Source of the DNA: Nanopusillaceae archaeon
Lineage (GTDB): Archaea; Nanobdellota; Nanobdellia; Nanobdellales; Nanobdellaceae
Direction: 5' to 3'
DNA: 24,546 nucleotides
Assembly (NCBI GenBank): GCA_038735675.1
Contig: JAVYNJ010000007.1
Coordinates: 1-24,546, forward strand
Shown: piece by piece, positions 13,047 to 24,511 of the stretch
Layout: each line of letters opens with the position of its first letter
Position numbering within the stretch: the stretch's first letter is position 1
Notes under the pieces: generated by a model
What the model saw: only the letters and a program-made list of their open reading frames with translations
The model's database searches: none
What the model was told of the DNA's origin: nothing
Program-made: the position numbers and the translations under genes

Positions 13047-13487
13047 ATGGTTTGTATAGCAATATGCGCTTTAGGAACTGCTTCGGCATCTTTAATTACT
13101 AAATATTTAGGTATTAGCGATTTAATATTTGGATTATGGTTAGGGGCTTTAAATCTTATATTTACAATTGCAACAATAGAATATCTAAATAAAAAAAATA
13201 TAAAGTTCTTATTTAGAAAACCTTTAATATTTCTGTTATATTCTTTATCTTTTTTACTTCCTTTTTATTATTTTAATGCTGTAGATACTATAAATAAGAT
13301 TTTTGGAATAGATAAAATAATTTGGGGATTTATTTTAGGAAATATTACATTAAAATTAGGATATTTCACGAATGATATATTAATTGAAAAAAATAATGGA
13401 AAAGTTTATTTTAAATTTCAAAAATCAATTATTCCTCTGCTATTTCTTGTAATCCTAAGTTTAATATTTTGGATTCTAAAAATTTAG
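13047..13487 (+). CDS. Hypothetical small membrane protein
   Basis: 146 aa with four hydrophobic helices. It converges on and overlaps the 3' end of 13429..14322 by 59 nt. Confidence 0.5.
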   Translation: MVCIAICALGTASASLITKYLGISDLIFGLWLGALNLIFTIATIEYLNKKNIKFLFRKPLIFLLYSLSFLLPFYYFNAVDTINKIFGIDKIIWGFILGNITLKLGYFTNDILIEKNNGKVYFKFQKSIIPLLFLVILSLIFWILKI

Positions 13488-14322
13488 AATAATAATCAAG
13501 ATGTTTATTTAATTTGTATTCTGTACAATCTAATAAATTTTTTATTATATTGTTTTTTTCTAAATTTTCAAATTCTTTATAAATTATTTCCTTGTATTTA
13601 TCTATTGATTTTTTCTCCGATAGATCTTTTATCAATTCTGAAATTTTTACATTTTTTTGTAATAAAAGAGCTGGAATCCTATATAAAAAATAATATTTTA
13701 ATTCGTGATATAAATCCAAAATATCTAAACTAGTATAGGATATATTTATACATTTATCATATTTTTTTAATAATTCTTCCATTTCTGTATCTAATTTTTC
13801 TTTAATATCTTTTTTCATATTATTTTCTAATTTTTCTAAGTAATTAGGATCTTTAAGCTTGTTTATAACATACTTATTTATTTTTTCTATAGATTCTTCA
13901 ATGTCTTTATTTTTATTTATAGGAAAATCTAAGCTTATTGTATTATATATATTTTCAAATAGAGTTGCCAAACTCTCGTGAATAATAAGATTTTCTTTAA
14001 CTTCCTTCTTTTTTAAATCGGTATCTAAAATTACATGAACATATTCATGGATAACACTTTTCATAAGTTCATGTATTAATCTTGGATTACTCTTATGATT
14101 ATTCAAAATAATATCTAAATAATTCGAATTTATATAAATTTTTCCGTCTTTATAAAATGTTGGAAAATATAAATTTCCAATAATTTTCTTTTGAAGATCT
14201 AAAGACTCTAATTCAATTGAAACTTTATTATCTTTATTAAATACCTCTTTACCAAACTCATTTAAAATATTTTCAAGTTTTTTAATAACCTTTGTTTTTA
14301 ATTCAGTATTTGTTACAACCAT
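13429..14322 (-). CDS. Putative zinc metallopeptidase (HExxH, gluzincin-like spacing)
   Basis: 297 aa. HEYVH is followed 20 residues later by IIHESLATLFE (HExxH-x19-E, with an ExxA context as in MA-clan peptidases). The rest is unrecognisable. Confidence 0.5.
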   Translation of the reverse strand: MVVTNTELKTKVIKKLENILNEFGKEVFNKDNKVSIELESLDLQKKIIGNLYFPTFYKDGKIYINSNYLDIILNNHKSNPRLIHELMKSVIHEYVHVILDTDLKKKEVKENLIIHESLATLFENIYNTISLDFPINKNKDIEESIEKINKYVINKLKDPNYLEKLENNMKKDIKEKLDTEMEELLKKYDKCINISYTSLDILDLYHELKYYFLYRIPALLLQKNVKISELIKDLSEKKSIDKYKEIIYKEFENLEKNNIIKNLLDCTEYKLNKHLDYYSKFLESKILNLGLQEIAEE

Positions 14323-14476
14323 GTAGTAATAATAGAAGATCTAAAGACTCTAATTCAATTGAAACTTTATTATCTTTATTAAATACCTCTTTACCAAACT
14401 CATTTAAAATATTTTCAAGTTTTTTAATAACTTTTGTTTTTAATTCAGTATTTGTTACAACCATGTAGTAATAATA
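14193..14476. repeat. Head-to-tail tandem duplication, 2 x 142 bp (14193..14334 and 14335..14476), 1 mismatch
   Basis: Base-by-base comparison shows the copies are identical except 14290 c versus 14432 t. Each unit holds the first 43.3 codons of the 13429..14322 gene, its ATG and 12 nt of upstream sequence. Confidence 0.95.
14303..14464 (-). pseudogene. Duplicated 5' fragment of the HExxH gene: 43 native codons then an out-of-frame tail (53 aa)
   Basis: ATG at 14464 gives MVVTNTELKTKVIKKLENILNEFGKEVFNKDNKVSIELESLDL, then LLLLHGCNKY and a TGA stop at 14305..14303. It overlaps the intact gene's ATG (14322) in another frame. Confidence 0.7.
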
Positions 14477-15325: not shown

Positions 15326-15919
15326 TTAAAATTCAAAAGAATTTAAATATTCTTCTATGATAAATCTTCTTTTTCTTTTAAACTTTTTGCCTAATGCTAT
15401 TCCAACAAATAATCCACCCAAATGAGCAATATATCCAACGTTTCCTATTTGAAATATAAAACCAAATAGATTAAAAAGTATCCATATAATAAGTGCAGTA
15501 CTCATAGATATAGGTACCATAAAAGGAAAAATTATTACATAATCTTGCGGTCTAAGAATTGCAAAGGCTCCTAATATACCAAAAATACATCCCGAAGCTC
15601 CTATTCCAAAAATATCTTGATTAAAATAGAAAATAAAATAGATCAAATTTCCAAAAATACCTGAAAGAAAATACAGTATTAGAAATCTTTCTTTTCCAAT
15701 TATTCTTTCCAAAGGATCTCCAAAAATAAACAAGGTTAGCATATTTACAAAAAGATGGGAAAAACTTCCATGTATAAATAAGTTTGTAAATATGGTCCAT
15801 GGTCTTTCAAAAAATCTTAATGGAGAAAAACCAAAAAAATATATAAAATTCTCTCCAAAAACTAAAGTTAAAATAAACATGATAACATTTAAAATTAGCA
15901 ACACAAAATTTGCTTTCAT
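15326..15919 (-). CDS. Rhomboid family intramembrane serine protease
   Basis: Six TM helices with signatures FIHGSFSHLFVNM (HxxxN), the catalytic GASGCIFGILGA (GxSG) and AHLGGLFVGI (catalytic His). Confidence 0.85.
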   Translation of the reverse strand: MKANFVLLILNVIMFILTLVFGENFIYFFGFSPLRFFERPWTIFTNLFIHGSFSHLFVNMLTLFIFGDPLERIIGKERFLILYFLSGIFGNLIYFIFYFNQDIFGIGASGCIFGILGAFAILRPQDYVIIFPFMVPISMSTALIIWILFNLFGFIFQIGNVGYIAHLGGLFVGIALGKKFKRKRRFIIEEYLNSFEF

Positions 15920-15941
15920 TTTTAATACATTATAGAAATAC

Positions 15942-15948
15942 TTAAAAC
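15942..15948 (+). promoter_or_regulatory. Putative TATA box (TTAAAAC) for metG, spacing consistent with a leaderless mRNA
   Basis: The heptamer ends 22 nt upstream of the ATG at 15971. Confidence 0.3.
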
Positions 15949-15970
15949 ATTAATTTGTATCTTATTAAAC

Positions 15971-18085
15971 ATGAAGAAAGAGTTTATATTGGTAACTGCG
16001 GCTTTACCATATTCAAATAATGTCCCACATATTGGACACATCGTTGGATCTCATCTCCCAGCAGATATTTTTGCAAGATATCAAAGATTTAAGGGAAATT
16101 ACGTTATATTCATCGGAGGAACTGATGAACATGGAACTCCAACCGAAATAGAAGCAATAAAAAAGAATACTACACCAGAAAAGATAACTGAATTTTATTA
16201 CAATATTCATAAAAAAATTTATGATTGGTTTAATATTTCTTATGACAATTTTTCTAGAACTTCTAAATCAGAAATACATTATGAGATGACTAAAAACATA
16301 TTTTTGAGAATTTTATGTTCAGATTTGATATGTGAAAAAATTGACGAATTACCTTACGATCCTTTAACTGGGAGATTTTTACCAGATAGATATGTTATTG
16401 GAAAGTGTCCACATTGTGGATACGATAAAGCAAGAGGAGATCAATGTGAAAATTGTGGAAAATTATTAGATCCTAAAGATTTGATAGAGCCGAAAAATTC
16501 TATAAATGGAAATCCGGTGATTTTCAAAAAAACTAGACATATATACTTTAGATTAGATAAACTATCCGAAGATTTAAAAAATTGGATAGAAGAAAAGAAA
16601 AAAGATTTTTCAGAACTTACATATACTACTTCGAAAAGTATGCTAAATGAGGGACTTAAAGAAAGAAGTATTACTAGAGATATAAAATGGGGTGTACCAG
16701 TTCCCTATGAAGATATTTGGAGATTTATACTAGACAAAATATTTAGCAAAATTGATTTTTCTTCAAAAGATAAACTATTCTATTCTATTATTGATTCTCT
16801 AAAATCTATTGATATTCCAATTACTCCAGAAGATGAAGAAAAAATAAAAGCAGTTATAGAACAAAACTGGCCAAAAATAGATAGTATAATAAATAGTATC
16901 AATATATACGAACCGTATAAAAATAAAGTTTTTTATGTATGGTTTGATGCACCGATAGGATATATTTCTTTTACGGTAGAATTGTTAAAAGAGGAGTTTA
17001 GCTTAAAAGAATTAGAAAACGTAGATTTAAAGGATTGTAAAATAATCAATATAGAAGAAAATTTTGCAGAAATAGAAATTGGTGATATTAAATATAAGGT
17101 AAAATATAAAGAAGTTGATGGTACATTATATATTGAAGATATAGAACCTGGATACTTCTTTTCAAATATTAAAAAAATAATTAAGATACTTTTAAATTCA
17201 AAAAAACTAGAAAAAGCGATTAATAAAATAAATTGGAAAAAATTTTGGATGGAAGGAAAAATATATCACTTTTTAGGCAAAGATAATATTCCTTTTCATA
17301 CTCTATTCTGGCCAGGAATAATTATTGCTTCGAATAAATGTAAAAAAGTAGATTCTATATTTGAAAAAGAAATTAAACTACCAGAAAACGTATTTGGTTA
17401 TGCTTATTTAACTTATGAGGGAAGAAAAATTAGTAAAAGTCAAAATTGGGGAATTTTCTGTGATAGCCTAATTGATGCTAATATTGATAGTGACTATTGG
17501 AGATTTTATTTAGCATATTTAATTCCTGAAAATAAAGATACTTCTTTCAAATGGAATGAATTTACAGAAATAATAAATAAAGAACTAGTAAATAATATCG
17601 GAAACTTAACTCATAGAGTATTAAAATTCTTTTGGCAAAATTACAAAAAAATTAATGGAGATTTTAATAAAGAAATATTAAAAATTGCTAGAGAATATTA
17701 TGATATAATTTGCTCACATTTAGAAAAAGGAGAGATATCAACAGCCTTAAAAAAGATAATTGAAATGTCTAATAGAGGTAATGTTCTATTTCAAGAGAGA
17801 AAACCCTGGGAAAATCCTGAAAAAAATAAAGAATTTATAAACAGTATGATAATTTACATAATAATAATTTACACATTTTTATCATTTTATATACCAAAAT
17901 ATTCTAAGATATTTTTTGAACAATTAAAAATAGAGATATTAAATAATAAAGACCTATTAGAATTATTAGAAAATCCCAAAAAACTAAGCATTGAAATGAA
18001 AAGCGAACCAAAACCCCTTTTTAATAAACTAGATATAGAATATATAAATAAAATTAAAGAAAATGTTACTAAACCAAAATATTAA
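15971..18085 (+). CDS. metG: Methionyl-tRNA synthetase with two large internal insertions
   Basis: Motifs are the HIGH motif PHIGHIVG, zinc knuckle CPHCG...CENCG, RDIKWGVPVP, VFYVWFDAPIGYIS, HFLGKDNIPFHTLFWP, a KMSKS variant KISKS, and the anticodon-domain NELVNNIGNLTHR. There is no C-terminal Trbp111-like domain. Confidence 0.9.
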   Translation: MKKEFILVTAALPYSNNVPHIGHIVGSHLPADIFARYQRFKGNYVIFIGGTDEHGTPTEIEAIKKNTTPEKITEFYYNIHKKIYDWFNISYDNFSRTSKSEIHYEMTKNIFLRILCSDLICEKIDELPYDPLTGRFLPDRYVIGKCPHCGYDKARGDQCENCGKLLDPKDLIEPKNSINGNPVIFKKTRHIYFRLDKLSEDLKNWIEEKKKDFSELTYTTSKSMLNEGLKERSITRDIKWGVPVPYEDIWRFILDKIFSKIDFSSKDKLFYSIIDSLKSIDIPITPEDEEKIKAVIEQNWPKIDSIINSINIYEPYKNKVFYVWFDAPIGYISFTVELLKEEFSLKELENVDLKDCKIINIEENFAEIEIGDIKYKVKYKEVDGTLYIEDIEPGYFFSNIKKIIKILLNSKKLEKAINKINWKKFWMEGKIYHFLGKDNIPFHTLFWPGIIIASNKCKKVDSIFEKEIKLPENVFGYAYLTYEGRKISKSQNWGIFCDSLIDANIDSDYWRFYLAYLIPENKDTSFKWNEFTEIINKELVNNIGNLTHRVLKFFWQNYKKINGDFNKEILKIAREYYDIICSHLEKGEISTALKKIIEMSNRGNVLFQERKPWENPEKNKEFINSMIIYIIIIYTFLSFYIPKYSKIFFEQLKIEILNNKDLLELLENPKKLSIEMKSEPKPLFNKLDIEYINKIKENVTKPKY

Positions 18086-18164
18086 AATTAAATTAAAAAA
18101 TAAAAATTTAAAATAGCCTTAACAGAACCTTTATAAATTTATACTACTAAAAAATTTACTTTTT

Positions 18165-18179
18165 TTGTTGTTGTTGTTG
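18165..18179. repeat. (TTG)5 microsatellite in the longest intergenic region
   Basis: ttgttgttgttgttg read directly from the sequence. On the minus strand it encodes the Gln5 run of a 17-codon mini-ORF. Confidence 0.9.
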
Positions 18180-18421
18180 TTCTTTCTTTTCTTCTTTTTT
18201 CTTTGCCATATTAATATATATTGACAATGATTTTATAAATATTAACGAAAATACTTAAAAATCAAAACATATATCGCTTTATAAAGACCTATCGTAATAA
18301 AAAAACGTCTTCAGATTTTAAATAAAATAAAAGAAAATTTTCAATAAAATAGAATAATGATAAAATTTATATCTAAATTCAAGAAAAGAATAAATAAAAT
18401 TAAAATTATAAAATTACTAAA

Positions 18422-19375
18422 ATGGCATTTGATATAATTGGTGATATAGCAATAATAAAAAAACCATTAAAATATGATATTGAAGAATATAAGAAGATTA
18501 TACTCAATAAACATAAAAATATAAAGACTATTTTACTACAAGAAACTGAAGTAGAACCTCCTTACAGAATAGCAAAATATAAATTCATTTATGGAGAAAA
18601 AAAAACTGAAACAATTTGCATTGAATATGGATTAAGGTTTAAATTAGATATTTCAAAATGCTATTATTCTAACAGATTATCAAATGAAAGACATAGAATA
18701 GCTAAAAGCGTTAAAGATGGAGAAAAAGTTTTAGTGATGTTTTCTGGAGTTAATCCATATCCTATATATATTTCAAAATTTTCTAAAGCGGATAAAATTT
18801 ATTCTATAGAATTAAATCCATATGCTTTTAAGTATGGAATAGAAAATGTCAAACTAAATAAAGCAAATAACATTATAACTATTTTAGGAGATGTTAGAGA
18901 CGTAACACCATATTTATACTATCTATCCAACGGGGATGGTATAATAAATGATGACATCTTAAATGATGCTATAGAATCTTCTATTGAATTGAATAAAGCA
19001 ATTTTCACCAGAGAAATAAATAAAAAATTAAAAGCTAAAGAATATTTAAATTTAGATTTTTTTAAAGATAAAGAAAAATACAAATTGAAATTTGACAGAA
19101 TTATAATGCCATTACCAAAAGAATCGGATCTTTTTTTAGATGTTGCAATACCGGCTATAAAAAATAACGGAATAATACATTTATACCATTTCTTAAATGA
19201 AGAAAATTATATGGAAGAAATTAAAAAGATATTAGATGAACAATCAGAAAAATTAAATTTTAAATATGAAATATTAAATATAATTAAAGCTGGAGATATA
19301 TCTCCCGGAGTTTATAGATATTGCATAGATTTTAAAGTAATAAAAAAATATAATGAAAACTATGGAGAAATTTAA
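18422..19375 (+). CDS. trm5: tRNA (guanine37-N1)-methyltransferase Trm5 (Met-10+ domain), D1-less with internal insertion
   Basis: It starts directly with the D2 signature FDIIGDIAII. It also has YYSNRLSNERHRIA, SAM-binding VLVMFSGVNPYPI, SIELNP, GDVRDV and FDRIIMPLP (NLP-type motif). Confidence 0.8.
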   Translation: MAFDIIGDIAIIKKPLKYDIEEYKKIILNKHKNIKTILLQETEVEPPYRIAKYKFIYGEKKTETICIEYGLRFKLDISKCYYSNRLSNERHRIAKSVKDGEKVLVMFSGVNPYPIYISKFSKADKIYSIELNPYAFKYGIENVKLNKANNIITILGDVRDVTPYLYYLSNGDGIINDDILNDAIESSIELNKAIFTREINKKLKAKEYLNLDFFKDKEKYKLKFDRIIMPLPKESDLFLDVAIPAIKNNGIIHLYHFLNEENYMEEIKKILDEQSEKLNFKYEILNIIKAGDISPGVYRYCIDFKVIKKYNENYGEI

Positions 19376-20351
19376 TGAAGATCTCTATCTTGAATTTTAT
19401 GAAACTGAAAATAGATTTATACTTGAAGATGCTTTATATGTTAACAAAATAGAATACAGAAGAGATCCTTTAACTGGAATATGGGTAAGAATAAATAGAA
19501 GATTAAATGAAAAACATAAAATTAAAAATATTATTGAAAAAAAAGAAAAAATAGAATGTCCTTTTTGCAAAGAAAACATTTTTACTAAAACTCCAAAACT
19601 AACTGACAGAGATAGATTTATATTAGAAAAAAGTATCGCATTTCCGAGCTTATATCCCTATGCTAAATATCATTTTGTTTTAGTTCCAAATTATGAAGAA
19701 CATATAGAAAATTTTTCAGATTTGAAGTTTGAAGATTTTTATAATTCGATGATTCTAATAAAAGAAGTTGCAGATTATGTAAATAAGAAAGATAAAAACT
19801 ATAAATATCTTTTTATAAATTTAAACAAAGGTCCTTTTTCTGGTGCATCTCAAGAACATTTACATTTTCAAATAATTATAGAAGATATTCCTAGAGGTTT
19901 CTATAGTAAATTAGTAGAAAACTCAGAAAAATATTTTAACAAATACAAAAGCTTTTTAATAGAAGACTACATTAATTTTGAAAAAAATCTAAATAAAAGA
20001 TATATTAAAGAAGATAAAAATTTTGTTTTAATATCACCTTTTGCTCCTATAAGAAATAATGAAATCTTAGGAATGATAAAATCGTTTGGAATATATTTTA
20101 TGTCATCAATAAATTTCAGAGAATTTCTTTTAGAACTATATAGATTATTAAAAATATACGAAAATCAATTTGAAAATTTTAATTTAGTAATTTCAGATAC
20201 TTCATATATAAAAGAAGGCAAAATTTTACCATTTTTTAGAGTTGGACAAAGAAATCAAAATGATATTGGATTTTTAGAACTTTATCATGGAGAATTTGTT
20301 GTTGGAAAAAGTCCAGAAGATACTGCAAAATTCTTTAGAGTTATAATATAG
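19353..20351 (+). CDS. Galactose-1-phosphate uridylyltransferase (GalT)-family nucleotidyltransferase/phosphorylase
   Basis: 332 aa. It has the zinc motif CPFCKEN near the N-terminus and the HIT-like active site SGASQEHLHFQI (HxHxQ). It overlaps the trm5 3' end by 23 nt, and an alternative ATG exists at 19362. Confidence 0.6.
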   Translation: MKTMEKFNEDLYLEFYETENRFILEDALYVNKIEYRRDPLTGIWVRINRRLNEKHKIKNIIEKKEKIECPFCKENIFTKTPKLTDRDRFILEKSIAFPSLYPYAKYHFVLVPNYEEHIENFSDLKFEDFYNSMILIKEVADYVNKKDKNYKYLFINLNKGPFSGASQEHLHFQIIIEDIPRGFYSKLVENSEKYFNKYKSFLIEDYINFEKNLNKRYIKEDKNFVLISPFAPIRNNEILGMIKSFGIYFMSSINFREFLLELYRLLKIYENQFENFNLVISDTSYIKEGKILPFFRVGQRNQNDIGFLELYHGEFVVGKSPEDTAKFFRVII

Positions 20352-20354
20352 CTT

Positions 20355-20834
20355 CTAATATTTTAAAGAATCATATAATATTTTAAGTAGATTACTTTTG
20401 GATTTATCCATCTCTAATAAACTCTTTCTATTGAAATAATTTCTAGAATTTTCGTAAATCTCAGAAATATTTTCAATCAAAAAATCTAACTTAAGATACT
20501 TACTTAATTCTGAATCAATATTATTTACCTTATCTGAACATAAAAATCGATTTTTACCATCATTATAGCATATATAATATTTGTTTGTATCTTTTAGGTT
20601 AATATAATCATTTAAAATGTATATAGCTAGAAATTTTGGCTTACTAAATATTTTAAATATTTTATTTTCATTGTAAATTTCCAAAGAATATATATTTTGG
20701 GAATATTTGTTTATTTTAAAGATTAAATCTTCTAAAAAATTTTTTTTAATTTTCAAATGATAAGAATCAACCACTATATCTTTTGAAATAATATTTTTTA
20801 TATATTCTCCGTTTCTTTTTTGTATCTCAATCAT
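20355..20834 (-). CDS. Hypothetical protein
   Basis: 159-aa ORF, the last gene of the minus-strand block that begins at the GNAT gene. No recognisable motif. Confidence 0.5.
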   Translation of the reverse strand: MIEIQKRNGEYIKNIISKDIVVDSYHLKIKKNFLEDLIFKINKYSQNIYSLEIYNENKIFKIFSKPKFLAIYILNDYINLKDTNKYYICYNDGKNRFLCSDKVNNIDSELSKYLKLDFLIENISEIYENSRNYFNRKSLLEMDKSKSNLLKILYDSLKY

Positions 20835-20857
20835 AATAATGAAATATATAGAAAAAT

Positions 20858-21316
20858 TTATAAATTTTTTTCAAGAAAAGTTGATATTTTTTCTTTTAGA
20901 ATATATGATAGCAAAATCTCTAGTTTTCTCCAATTTTTATTTTCTATAGCTTTTTCTGAAAAGAGATATATATCTCTGAATACTCTTCTTCTTTCATATT
21001 TACTTAAATGTGAAACACTAAAAAAATTTGAATTATAAATTGAGACTTTTCCAAAATCATTACATATACACTTATAAAATCTATCTAAATCCTCAAACTT
21101 CAATTTTTGTATTAATAAAGCCTCTTCAATAGATTGATTCACTCCATATTTCTCAGAAATTTTTATTATATAAACATAATTGTTATAAGGAATTTCAATT
21201 CTTCCAAAAATTACTCTGAGATATCTATCGTCATCTAAATAAATTTTTTTTGAATAAAATACATCTATTCTATCCTTTAATTTTATATAATCCTTACAAA
21301 TACTTTTACATAACAT
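20858..21316 (-). CDS. Hypothetical protein (shares an N-terminal motif with 12108..12995)
   Basis: 152-aa ORF. The N-terminus MLCKSICKDYIKLKDRIDVFYSKKIY...NNYVYIIKISE parallels MLCLDSSIKHIKKKGIDLHDKKIY...NYNINYLKISG. Confidence 0.5.
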   Translation of the reverse strand: MLCKSICKDYIKLKDRIDVFYSKKIYLDDDRYLRVIFGRIEIPYNNYVYIIKISEKYGVNQSIEEALLIQKLKFEDLDRFYKCICNDFGKVSIYNSNFFSVSHLSKYERRRVFRDIYLFSEKAIENKNWRKLEILLSYILKEKISTFLEKNL

Positions 21317-21354
21317 AAATAATTCTTTTTTTAAATATTTTTAACTATTATCAA

Positions 21355-22428
21355 TTACTTCACAGTTACACTTTTAGCTAGATTTCTTGGGTAGTCTATG
21401 GGTAATCTCTTTTCTCTTGCAATATAATAGGTCAATAATTGTCCTATTATTACAGAATATATAATAAAATCTGGAAAAGATTCTGATATATTAAAGTCTC
21501 CAGGAATTTTATAAACACTTCCTCCTCTTGCTAATATCTCTTCAATATTTGTTTTTATGTTATCATCCCAATAAGGATTTAAAGATAAAACCTTTGTTCC
21601 TTCTTCTATTAAAGCTAAAGTTCCATGTTTTAATTCTCCACCAGGCAAGGCTTCAGCATGAATGTAAGATATTTCCTTTAATTTTAAAGCTATTTCCATA
21701 GAAGAATAATAATTTATCCCTCTACCAATTATATACAGATCTTTTTCATTTTTTAAATATCTAGATAAATTAATTATTTTTTCTTCATTATTTTTAATTG
21801 TGTTTTCTATTTCTTTAGGTATATCATATAAATTTATTTTTAATCCTAACTTATTTGCAATATAAAAAAATGTAATTACTTGATTTGTAAATGTTTTTGT
21901 TGCAGCAACACATTTTTCCTGACCTGCTTTTATTTCAATAAAATTAGAAGACATTCTTTGAATTGTTGAATAAGGAACATTTACTATAGATAAGATATCT
22001 TTAACTCTACTTTTCAGATCTTTTAATGCTAAAATAACATCCATAGTTTCTCCAGATTGTGATACTGCTATTACTAAAGTATCTCTATCATATTTCATTT
22101 CTTTGTATTCTGATGCCAAAACCGAATATGCATCATAATTTAATTCTCTAAATAATTTTGATCCTATTAAAGATGCATGATAAGAAGATCCTGCAGCGAC
22201 AAAAACAATTTTTTTAGAATCATTAATTTTTTCTATAAAATCATTAATAGTTTTTTCTTGTTCTGTATTTAAAGAATCTATTAATATTTTTGAAACTAAA
22301 ATTTGATCATATATTTCTTTAATCATGTAATGTTCATATTCTTTCTTGTACTCTAAATTTATCCATTTTAGTTTTTTAATTTTCTTTTCTATTAAATTTC
22401 CAGATAAATCATAAAACTCTATTTTCAT
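21355..22428 (-). CDS. glmS: Glutamine--fructose-6-phosphate aminotransferase, C-terminal piece (end of glutaminase domain + two SIS domains)
   Basis: Motifs are HYMIKEIYDQ (domain linker), SIS motifs VFVAAGSSYHASLIG and AVSQSGETMDVILAL, GGELKHGTLALIEEGT, and the canonical C-terminus PRNLAKSVTVK. Confidence 0.85.
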   Translation of the reverse strand: MKIEFYDLSGNLIEKKIKKLKWINLEYKKEYEHYMIKEIYDQILVSKILIDSLNTEQEKTINDFIEKINDSKKIVFVAAGSSYHASLIGSKLFRELNYDAYSVLASEYKEMKYDRDTLVIAVSQSGETMDVILALKDLKSRVKDILSIVNVPYSTIQRMSSNFIEIKAGQEKCVAATKTFTNQVITFFYIANKLGLKINLYDIPKEIENTIKNNEEKIINLSRYLKNEKDLYIIGRGINYYSSMEIALKLKEISYIHAEALPGGELKHGTLALIEEGTKVLSLNPYWDDNIKTNIEEILARGGSVYKIPGDFNISESFPDFIIYSVIIGQLLTYYIAREKRLPIDYPRNLAKSVTVK

Positions 22429-23054
22429 AGATTTATTATTAAGAATTCATAATCATCCATTGTAATTATATTTTCTACTTTATCCAAAAAGGCATATACA
22501 TCTGATGCTAGATATATTGTATTTTTATCTAAACCAACAACTAAAGGGCTGCCATTTTTTATTGCAACTATTTTATTAAGATTTTTTAAATAAATTATGA
22601 CAGCATACGTTCCATAAAAATTTTTAAATATATCTAAAACAATTTCTTTTATTTCTTTTCCATTTTTTAATTCTTCTTCAAACCAATGTGCAAATATCTC
22701 AGAATCTGTTTCAGAAACAAATTTATGTCCTCTTTCTACTAAATAATTTTTTAATTCTAAATAATTATCTATTGTTCCATTATGAACTACAAAAATTTCT
22801 TTATTACAATCATAATGCGGATGGGCATTTATTTCAGATACTTTTCCATGAGTAGCCCATCTGGTATGTCCTATGAATATTTTTGATTTTCCTTTAAAAT
22901 CTATTTTTTCTATCCTTCCAACTTTTTTAAATATAGTTTTATCTGAACAAAACCCATAAGAATCATAGCCTCTATATTCTAATCTTCTCAATCTCTCTAA
23001 ACCTTCTGAAATATCAAAAAATTCTTCAGAAATTATTGCAACAATTCCACACAT
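22425..23054 (-). CDS. glmS: Glutamine--fructose-6-phosphate aminotransferase, N-terminal piece (class II glutamine amidotransferase)
   Basis: It starts MCGIVAII (Ntn catalytic Cys2). It also has LEYRGYDSYG, GHTRWATHG, NAHPH, VVHNGTIDNY and SETDSEIFAH. It ends in an ATGA overlap with the downstream piece. Confidence 0.85.
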   Translation of the reverse strand: MCGIVAIISEEFFDISEGLERLRRLEYRGYDSYGFCSDKTIFKKVGRIEKIDFKGKSKIFIGHTRWATHGKVSEINAHPHYDCNKEIFVVHNGTIDNYLELKNYLVERGHKFVSETDSEIFAHWFEEELKNGKEIKEIVLDIFKNFYGTYAVIIYLKNLNKIVAIKNGSPLVVGLDKNTIYLASDVYAFLDKVENIITMDDYEFLIINL

Positions 23055-23407
23055 TATAAATCTATTCTAAACTCATATCCCCATTTTTTAAATCCTAACT
23101 TTTCATAAAATTTATGTACATTTTCTCTTTCAAATCTACTAGTAGCAATTATTTTATAACAACCTTTTTGTTTTGCAATTTCAATTGCTTTCTTAACCAA
23201 TATTTTTCCATAACCTCTATTTCTATAATTTTCCTCTATAAAAACATCTTCTAACAATGCATATGGTTTTTCATGTAAATCGTTCTTTATAAAGTATAAA
23301 TAGCATCTTCCTACTTCTTTATTTTCAATTTCTAAACTTATTTTCATGTTATTCCCATTATCAAATATCCTAAAATTCTTGTTTATGATATCTTCAAGAT
23401 TTTCCAT
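23054..23407 (-). CDS. Small GNAT N-acetyltransferase, GNA1-like core (possible glucosamine-6-phosphate N-acetyltransferase)
   Basis: 117 aa. The acetyl-CoA motif is YRNRGYGKIL. LEDVFIEENYRNRGYGKILVKKAIEIAKQKGCYKIIATSRFERENVHKFYEKLGF parallels yeast GNA1 IEDIAVNSKYQGQGLGKLLIDQLVTIGFDYGCYKIILDCDEKNVKFYEKCGF (recalled from memory). TAATG couples it to the glmS start. Confidence 0.7.
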   Translation of the reverse strand: MENLEDIINKNFRIFDNGNNMKISLEIENKEVGRCYLYFIKNDLHEKPYALLEDVFIEENYRNRGYGKILVKKAIEIAKQKGCYKIIATSRFERENVHKFYEKLGFKKWGYEFRIDL

Positions 23408-23511
23408 ATTATAATATTCTAAAAGATTTATTTTAATACTTACTAAAACTTTTATTTTAATATTTTTAATATTTAGAATAAATTTTTTAATTTTATTAAA
23501 AAATTATTTTT

Positions 23512-24511
23512 ATGATAATTGAAGATACTAAAGGATATTATTCCAAAAAGGCAAATTTTTTTGACAATTTTTCTAGAGAAATATTGAAGCTTTTATCCGA
23601 GAAACCAATGAGTATTTCCGAAATTGCAAAAGTTACTAGAAAATCTGAACAACTAATAAGCTACTATATAAACAAAAAATTAAAAAATTATTTAGATATT
23701 GTTAATGAAGATAAAAAAACAAAATACAAAGCATACAAATCTTATTATGATATTGTTAATGAAAAAGAAGAAAATTGCAAAAGTTACTAGAAAATCTGAA
23801 CAACTAATAAGCTACTATATAAACAAAAAATTAAAAAATTATTTAGATATTGTTAGTGAAGATAAAAAAACAAAATACAAAGCATACAAATCTTATTATG
23901 ATATTGTTAATGAAAAAGAAGATTTTATATTTTATGAAACAAAAAATAATAATTTATATCCATTCGTAAAAGATAATATATTAAATTGCTTAATAGTAGT
24001 TGGATCTCCAGTACCTCATGGTCCATTTTCAGCTTCTTCAAGAGATAGTCATTATGTTGGATACCTAACTTCTTTTTTAGGAAGATATTTTAATAAAACC
24101 CAATATTCTGATTTCATAAGATTAGATACAGACGTTATAAAAGAAAATTTATTAAAAAGCAATTTAATTCTTTTAGGTGGACCCGTATCAAATTATATAT
24201 CTTATAAAATTAATACTATTTTAAAAGTAAGATTTCTCCAAGAATATAACTGGGATATATATTCTGATTTTACCAATAAAAGATATTCTAATGAATTAGT
24301 TTCTTTAATTGCTTGTATAAAAAATCCATTTAATGATAATAAAAGAATACTTTTAATTGCGGGAAAAAGAGCTTTAGGAACAAAAATAGCAATAAAATAT
24401 TTCATAAATAGTTCTTTAGATTTATCTAAGGATTTCTATATAGTTATAGATAGCTTAGATTTAGATTCTGATGGAATTCCAGAAAAAATAATAGAATTAG
24501 AAAATAATTAA
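23512..24511 (+). pseudogene. Winged-HTH (ArsR-like) protein with an uncharacterised C-terminal domain, split by a 151-bp tandem duplication
   Basis: The track shows two ORFs (23512..23790 and 23699..24511) that both contain IAKVTRKSEQLISYYINKKLKNYLDIV.EDKKTKYKAYKSYYDIVNEKE. Removing one 151-bp unit gives 849 nt, a single uninterrupted 282-codon ORF. The HTH is ILKLLSEKPMSISEIAKVT. Confidence 0.75.
23621..23922. repeat. Head-to-tail tandem duplication, 2 x 151 bp (23621..23771 and 23772..23922), 1 mismatch
   Basis: Base-by-base comparison shows the copies are identical except 23705 a versus 23856 g (AAT Asn versus AGT Ser). Confidence 0.95.

Follow-up and report, generated by a model that had tools for sequence, protein, structure and literature searches.

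A gene-splitting tandem duplication in a Nanopusillaceae contig is probably a false duplication of overlapping strain variants

Introduction

A tandem duplication that splits an otherwise conserved gene can record a recent event in the life of a genome, or it can be made when the genome is assembled. Which of the two applies to a 151-bp repeat at the far end of the window, by which we mean the whole stretch of 24,546 nucleotides analysed here? The repeat interrupts the gene of a putative DNA-binding protein, and the first-pass annotation of this DNA had offered three readings without ranking them: a very recent inactivation, a reversible on/off state, and an assembly artefact. Single-copy relatives, the alleles that these relatives carry and a second repeat in the same window speak for the artefact and against the other two. 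Comparing these sequences, we put the probability at about 0.8 that the 151-bp repeat is a false duplication, produced from two overlapping contig ends that represent different strain variants. The gene would then be intact in the organism, probably as a single copy of 282 codons.

Anatomy of the 151-bp repeat

A tandem repeat finder applied to the 24.5-kb window returned a repeat with a period of 151 bp, 2.0 copies and a match of 99% at 23621..23922. Direct comparison, base by base, left a single mismatch between the two head-to-tail units, A at 23705 versus G at 23856, at offset 85 of the unit; at the protein level this is Asn65 versus Ser65. The window has 23.8% G+C and 0 N, and a chance origin of the repeat is excluded because the number of such repeats expected in the window, given its base composition, is about 10^-65. 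Into either flank the repeat extends by zero bases: the flanks AGTATTTCCG and TTTTATATTT stand against the unit ends AAAAAGAAGA and AAATTGCAAA. The junction at 23771|23772, which reads ...GAAAAAGAAGA|AAATTGCAAAAG..., is therefore without microhomology.

The consequences for the gene are easily followed. The length of 151 is 1 mod 3, and the first reading frame stops at 23790 (...VNEKEENCKSY*), which leaves a product of 92 residues. The remainder of the protein is read in another frame, that of 23699..24511, with ATG codons at 23747 and 23759, and the resulting 254-residue product is without helix 1 and most of helix 2 of the winged-helix domain. Deletion of either unit restores one gene of 849 nt, that is 282 codons and a stop, which we refer to as the collapsed form. 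In all these respects the description given by the first-pass annotation was reproduced: the arrangement of the units and their one differing base, the lack of microhomology (not even one base of extension into the flanks), the frame shift with its stop, and the restored single-copy gene. The features discussed here and below are collected in Table 1.

Table 1. Features of the window and of its near-identical relatives (positions in window coordinates; percentages are identities to the window)
Feature	Position	Strand	Details
Gene as found in the window, split by the repeat	23512..24511	+	1000 nt; collapsed 849 nt, 282 aa
Truncated ORF, from the frame shift at the unit 1|unit 2 junction	23512..23790	+	92 aa, tail ...EENCKSY*; P0068
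Downstream ORF	23747..24511	+	254 aa; P0064; alternative ATG 23759
Unit 1 of the 151-bp repeat	23621..23771	+	A at 23705 (Asn65); codons 37-87
Unit 2 of the 151-bp repeat	23772..23922	+	G at 23856 (Ser65)
Unit 1 of the 142-bp repeat	14193..14334	-	C at 14290
Unit 2 of the 142-bp repeat	14335..14476	-	T at 14432
Window-private synonymous SNP	14185		T, versus C in 5/5 relatives; 8 nt before the 142-bp unit
Window-private synonymous SNP	23586		G, versus A in 3/3 relatives; 35 nt before the 151-bp unit
L005	17940-24546		99.5%; 151-bp unit single copy, allele G
L006	18912-24495		99.7-99.8%; 151-bp unit single copy, allele A
L004	near the 151-bp locus		97.9-99.5%; single copy, allele G
L003 (independent Logan k=31 contig, SRR21619497)	142-bp locus		99.8-100%; single copy
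L007, L008, L009, L012	142-bp locus		99.3-99.8%; single copy
GlmS, glutamine amidotransferase part	22425..23054	-	209 aa
GlmS, SIS part	21355..22428	-	357 aa

The protein encoded by the collapsed gene

Judged by sequence and by a structural model of a close orthologue, the affected gene is predicted to encode an ArsR-type winged helix-turn-helix (HTH) domain followed by a C-terminal domain resembling an S-layer anchor. The collapsed protein scores above the cut-off for two Pfam families, HTH_5 (PF01022, ArsR type) with 25.8 bits against 22 and S_layer_C (PF05124) with 29.9 bits against 23.9. A database search returned 61 relatives, mostly from DPANN archaea, 60 of which have 282-329 residues and the same architecture; the best match is 91% identical. 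In the model of this 91%-identical orthologue (pLDDT 87) helices span residues 19-30, 35-42 and 46-56, and a beta wing follows at 61-74. The modelled N-terminal domain superposes on SmtB, CzrA and ArsR with 1.2-1.6 A over 59-62 residues, while the modelled C-terminal domain matches the domain that anchors the S-layer protein of Methanococcus voltae in the cell wall (9fsa; TM 0.74, E 2.9e-5). The earlier assignment of the gene to the winged-HTH proteins thus agrees both with the HTH_5 score and with the ArsR/SmtB-like fold of the orthologue model. Projected onto this fold, the 151-bp unit spans helix 2, the recognition helix 3, the wing and the linker.

The comparison with orthologues that had been proposed for this gene came out in favour of the collapsed form. 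Fifteen orthologues of 282-290 residues, 50-91% identical to it, align without a gap at the junction; 72 columns are invariant, and the duplication occurs in none of the 15. The collapsed protein and its relatives (P0001-P0061) also share a strongly conserved motif, VVGSPxPHGPFSAxxRDxHYVG. The family is widespread in archaea and apparently uncharacterised, and its naming differs among sources, being "S-layer protein" in some and "ArsR family regulator" in others.

A second repeat of the same anatomy

The first-pass annotation had missed a second tandem repeat in the window, at 14193..14476, with a period of 142 bp, 2.0 copies and one mismatch (C14290/T14432, offset 98). It does not extend into its flanks either, so that the extension is 0 on all four boundaries of both repeats; its junction at 14334|14335 reads ...GTAGTAATAATA|GAAGATCTAAAG.... 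The two repeats, 9 kb apart, hence have the same anatomy, namely 2.0 copies, a single mismatch and no microhomology.

The 142-bp repeat lies at the start of a minus-strand gene, 13429..14322, for which no Pfam or NCBIfam match was found. Its unit 1 holds the real start codon (14322), the first 43 codons and 12 nt of leader. The copy of the start codon in unit 2 (14464) opens a 53-residue ORF that is out of frame and runs across the real start. Apart from these two pairs, the window has no direct repeats that share at least one 30-mer. It also has no tandem repeats with periods of 25-141, though these would assemble easily.

Copy number and alleles among near-identical relatives

Near-identical sequence was available from five sibling metagenome-assembled genomes (MAGs) of one hot-spring survey and from one independent Logan contig assembled at k=31. 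Wherever these relatives cover one of the loci, they have a single copy: three out of three at the 151-bp locus and five out of five at the 142-bp locus. No tandem repeat above 100 bp was found in the sibling loci, which amount to about 90 kb in total with some regions covered repeatedly.

The relatives also account for the base that differs between the 151-bp units. Unit 1 has precisely the sequence that occurs once in L006 (A, Asn), and unit 2 the one that occurs once in L004 and in L005 (G, Ser). On the protein side, the collapsed Ser form matches P0062, a protein of two sibling MAGs, exactly, and the collapsed Asn form corresponds to P0065 from a third MAG, where it is cut by the contig end. 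Because each allele occurs alone in siblings, the A/G difference between the copies is a polymorphism of a population with a single-copy gene. At the other locus, unit 2 of the 142-bp repeat is identical to the single copy of L003 and L008, and L007, L009 and L012 have T at this site as well. The C allele at 14290 was found in none of the five relatives, all of which have T, so that the segregation of both alleles is seen for the 151-bp unit only.

Sequence on the two sides of the junctions adds a further clue. The last 150 nt before 14334|14335 hold two window-private synonymous SNPs (14185 and 14290), and the 305 nt after this junction are identical to L003. Since private SNPs precede the junction and L003-identical sequence follows it, the haplotype switches at this very point. 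The layout recurs at the 151-bp junction, with the private SNP 23586 before the unit and the allelic site inside it. Here a switch of haplotype, judged by the SNP patterns of the siblings, was not significant, and private SNPs cluster elsewhere too, for example at 15887-15991. The exact 36-mer across the junction was absent from the genome and metagenome collections scanned. This carries little weight, because a 35-mer from the flank was absent from them as well and the species is apparently not included.

Assembly context

The accessions of the siblings fall within the range of a set of archaeal MAGs from Tengchong hot springs (PRJNA544494). This set was built from 2x150 reads with metaSPAdes, using k up to 127, and for the bins reads were recruited at 97% identity and re-assembled by SPAdes --careful, in isolate mode and again with k up to 127 (PMC11770067). 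One of the sibling bins, JAWBCI, is described as Nanoclepta (Nanoarchaeota, Nanopusillaceae), with 448 kb in 21 scaffolds, 25.5% G+C and a CheckM strain heterogeneity of 100 (PMC11094006 supplement). We infer that the siblings' SPAdes-based procedure was also used for the window.

In such a pipeline, allelic contig ends that overlap by 128-253 bases can share no 127-mer if a variant site falls in every 127-mer of the overlap. Both 142 and 151 lie within 128-253, and the SNP is inside every 127-mer of each unit, although the SNP position carries little weight, its joint probability by chance being p ~0.54. Period and SNP position would be compatible with such an overlap at k=127 as well as at k=99 of the siblings' pipeline, which the window presumably shares. 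Contig ends that overlap over a comparable length are left in these assemblies: contigs 8 and 17 of the sibling MAG GCA_038823625.1 (the end of L007 and the start of L005) have an identical overlap of 148 nt, longer than 127, which corresponds to window 17940..18087. Runs of N, as signs of scaffolding, are present neither in the window nor in the siblings.

A probable false duplication from two contig ends

Taken together, these observations are consistent with the following course of events. The source would be a population of a tiny, Nanoclepta-like symbiotic archaeon made up of several strains that differ at about 0.2-0.7% of sites. In two regions a pair of contig ends may have been assembled, each from a different strain variant, one entering from the left with one allele and the other leaving to the right with the other allele, both covering the same 151 (or 142) bases. 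The two ends would have been left unmerged because the variant base falls in every long k-mer, so that they have no k-mer in common. Joined end to end, a step that we infer, they would give the shared stretch twice, once per allele. Boundaries that look arbitrary, with two adjacent near-identical copies at both loci, are what this reading expects. Two variants of it were considered and rejected. A gap closer acting on the assembly graph and merging ends on a short false overlap would produce a repeat of more than 2.0 copies. An exact SNP bubble would comprise 2k-1 bases centred on the SNP, whereas the SNPs observed lie away from the centre (85/151 and 98/142) and one of the two lengths, 142, is an even number.

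A feature that sits uneasily with a false duplication counts against it: the join is gapless, without trimming of the overlap and without Ns, and the k-mers of the junction had to be supplied from somewhere. A duplication really present in a minority of cells could also lead to the same sequence, the loop being traversed once with a different allele on each pass.

Weighing the alternatives

A real, very recent and strain-private tandem duplication, which inactivates the regulator gene or leaves it as two fragments, with the 142-bp repeat as a second and independent event, appears unlikely to us. The deposited sequence does carry the junction without Ns; de Bruijn assemblers normally require junction k-mers from reads; and one SNP per unit makes all 127-mers unique, so that a true duplication would assemble cleanly. 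Moreover, the window-private C at 14290 could be a mutation that followed the duplication. Yet one event of 142 bp and another, independent one of 151 bp are needed within 9 kb, with no other sizes in evidence, and by our own estimate the probability that both fall within 128-253 bp is about 0.02 if lengths are log-uniform over 10-1000 bp. Duplications of the slippage or flap type normally arise between short direct repeats, and neither junction has microhomology. The alleles weigh further against a fresh event. The 151-bp copies carry exactly the two alleles of single-copy relatives, and because fresh copies start out identical, parallel mutation or conversion would be needed to make them differ. 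The duplication is absent from all relatives, three at the 151-bp locus and five at the 142-bp locus. Finally, genes would be damaged at both loci in a streamlined genome of about 0.45 Mb, one by a frame shift in a conserved protein and the other by an additional start that precedes the real one and is out of frame. A more specific proposal treats both repeats as real and has the strain make duplications of about 140-150 bp without microhomology and carry them at high frequency; a conserved DNA-binding protein and a neighbouring gene of this minimal symbiont would thereby be knocked out in a quickly reversible way. Lengths of about 140-150 bp are close to the size of archaeal Okazaki fragments; we nevertheless regard this proposal as quite improbable.

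A reversible switch, in which the duplication turns the gene off and recombination between the copies restores it, has the attraction that a direct repeat of 151 bp would collapse readily by homologous recombination and exactly restore the frame, and a DNA-binding protein is a plausible point for such control. Its probability is nonetheless very small in our estimation: neither this nor any other duplication of the gene occurs in the relatives or in the 15 orthologues, the site has no flanking repeats or anything else that marks it as prone to duplication, and the second repeat lies in an unrelated gene without a family match. Hardly credible at all is a chimera of library preparation or sequencing, in which junction molecules are made in vitro, for example by template switching in PCR, and are then reproduced correctly by the assembler. 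Such molecules would account for the junction k-mers without any duplication in the genome. Template switching, however, needs homology at the switch point, where there is none; two such chimeras would be required, each at a coverage seen by the assembler; and the different real alleles on the two copies would be left unexplained. A false duplication from overlapping contig ends thus stays our preferred reading.

Other observations on the window and its relatives

Several features of the same sequences were recorded on their own account. Glucosamine-6-phosphate synthase (GlmS), at 21355..23054 on the minus strand, is encoded by two ORFs, which share 4 nt where the two domains meet (Table 1). 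It looks genuinely split and not the product of an error, because the same split is found in L004, L005 and L006. At 18165..18167 the window differs from L005, L008 and L012 by 3 bp (TTG) in the length of a TTGTTG run, a polymorphism of the ordinary kind that slippage produces between strains.

Compared with the window, L004 has a mosaic structure. It shows 83.5% identity over 15987-20339, is without 20340-21354 (two small minus-strand ORFs of 159 and 152 residues with no family match), and reaches 97.9% over 21355-23771, where 44 of the 51 differences fall within 21358-21829, and 99.5% after 23772. Either recombination between strains or a chimeric contig would produce this pattern. The bin of L004, with 1.24 Mb and 45% G+C, does not fit a Nanoclepta genome. 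Two more distant loci, L001 and L002 (GCA_039001335.1 and GCA_038888235.1), have the same gene order as the window at about 91-92% DNA identity. Their proteins are labelled Candidatus Aenigmatarchaeota, versus Nanopusillaceae for the siblings at 99%, which reflects either inconsistent taxonomy or wrong binning.

Implications

Should the repeat be an artefact, the gene is intact, and the apparent pseudogene as well as the fragment proteins recorded for this contig, P0064 and P0068, are spurious. The locus would then serve as a warning: when bins that mix strains are re-assembled in isolate mode, the result can include false duplications without a gap that slightly exceed the largest k-mer. Such false duplications break up genes and are open to misreading as phase variation or as a recent inactivation. 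They could be flagged by a simple scan for exact two-copy tandem repeats whose period is k+1 to 2k-1 and which hold one or two SNPs. If the repeat is real after all, it would be an example, of modest interest, of how a gene can be reversibly disrupted in a minimal archaeal symbiont. On the best reading it is in all likelihood not a feature of the genome, and its use lies in the recognisable signature that the artefact leaves.

Comparison with known systems

In its collapsed form the gene has counterparts in the fusion proteins of DPANN and other archaea that combine an ArsR/SmtB domain with S_layer_C, and it shares both domains with them above the cut-offs.

For the split form, the nearest biological parallel is the type 3 capsule gene cap3A of pneumococci, which reportedly undergoes phase variation by reversible tandem duplications inside the gene. 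Duplications of tens to hundreds of bases there shift the frame, and their precise loss restores it, which is also how the repeat in the window would act. In cap3A many different duplications reportedly recur in one gene within a single culture. The window, in contrast, has one event per gene in two unrelated genes, none of them seen in relatives, and the copies correspond to alleles of the population.

Among assembly errors, the closest relative is the type termed "duplicated overlapping contigs", which was described as a result of haplotype differences (Kelley and Salzberg 2010, PMC2864568); false gene gains have likewise been reported in vertebrate assemblies (PMC9516828). A literature search found no specific published account of such behaviour for SPAdes. 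By analogy, the 151-bp repeat most likely belongs to this type, here derived from co-existing strains. In the described cases, and by our reading in the window too, contig ends built from variants of one polymorphic stretch come to lie side by side, so that what looks like divergence between copies is allelic, and genes can be split or duplicated. The published examples come from Sanger-era overlap assemblies of diploids, where the variants are the two haplotypes and a gap usually separates the contigs, whereas the window would represent strains within a metagenome bin, with units of 142-151 bp just above the largest k-mer and joined without a gap.
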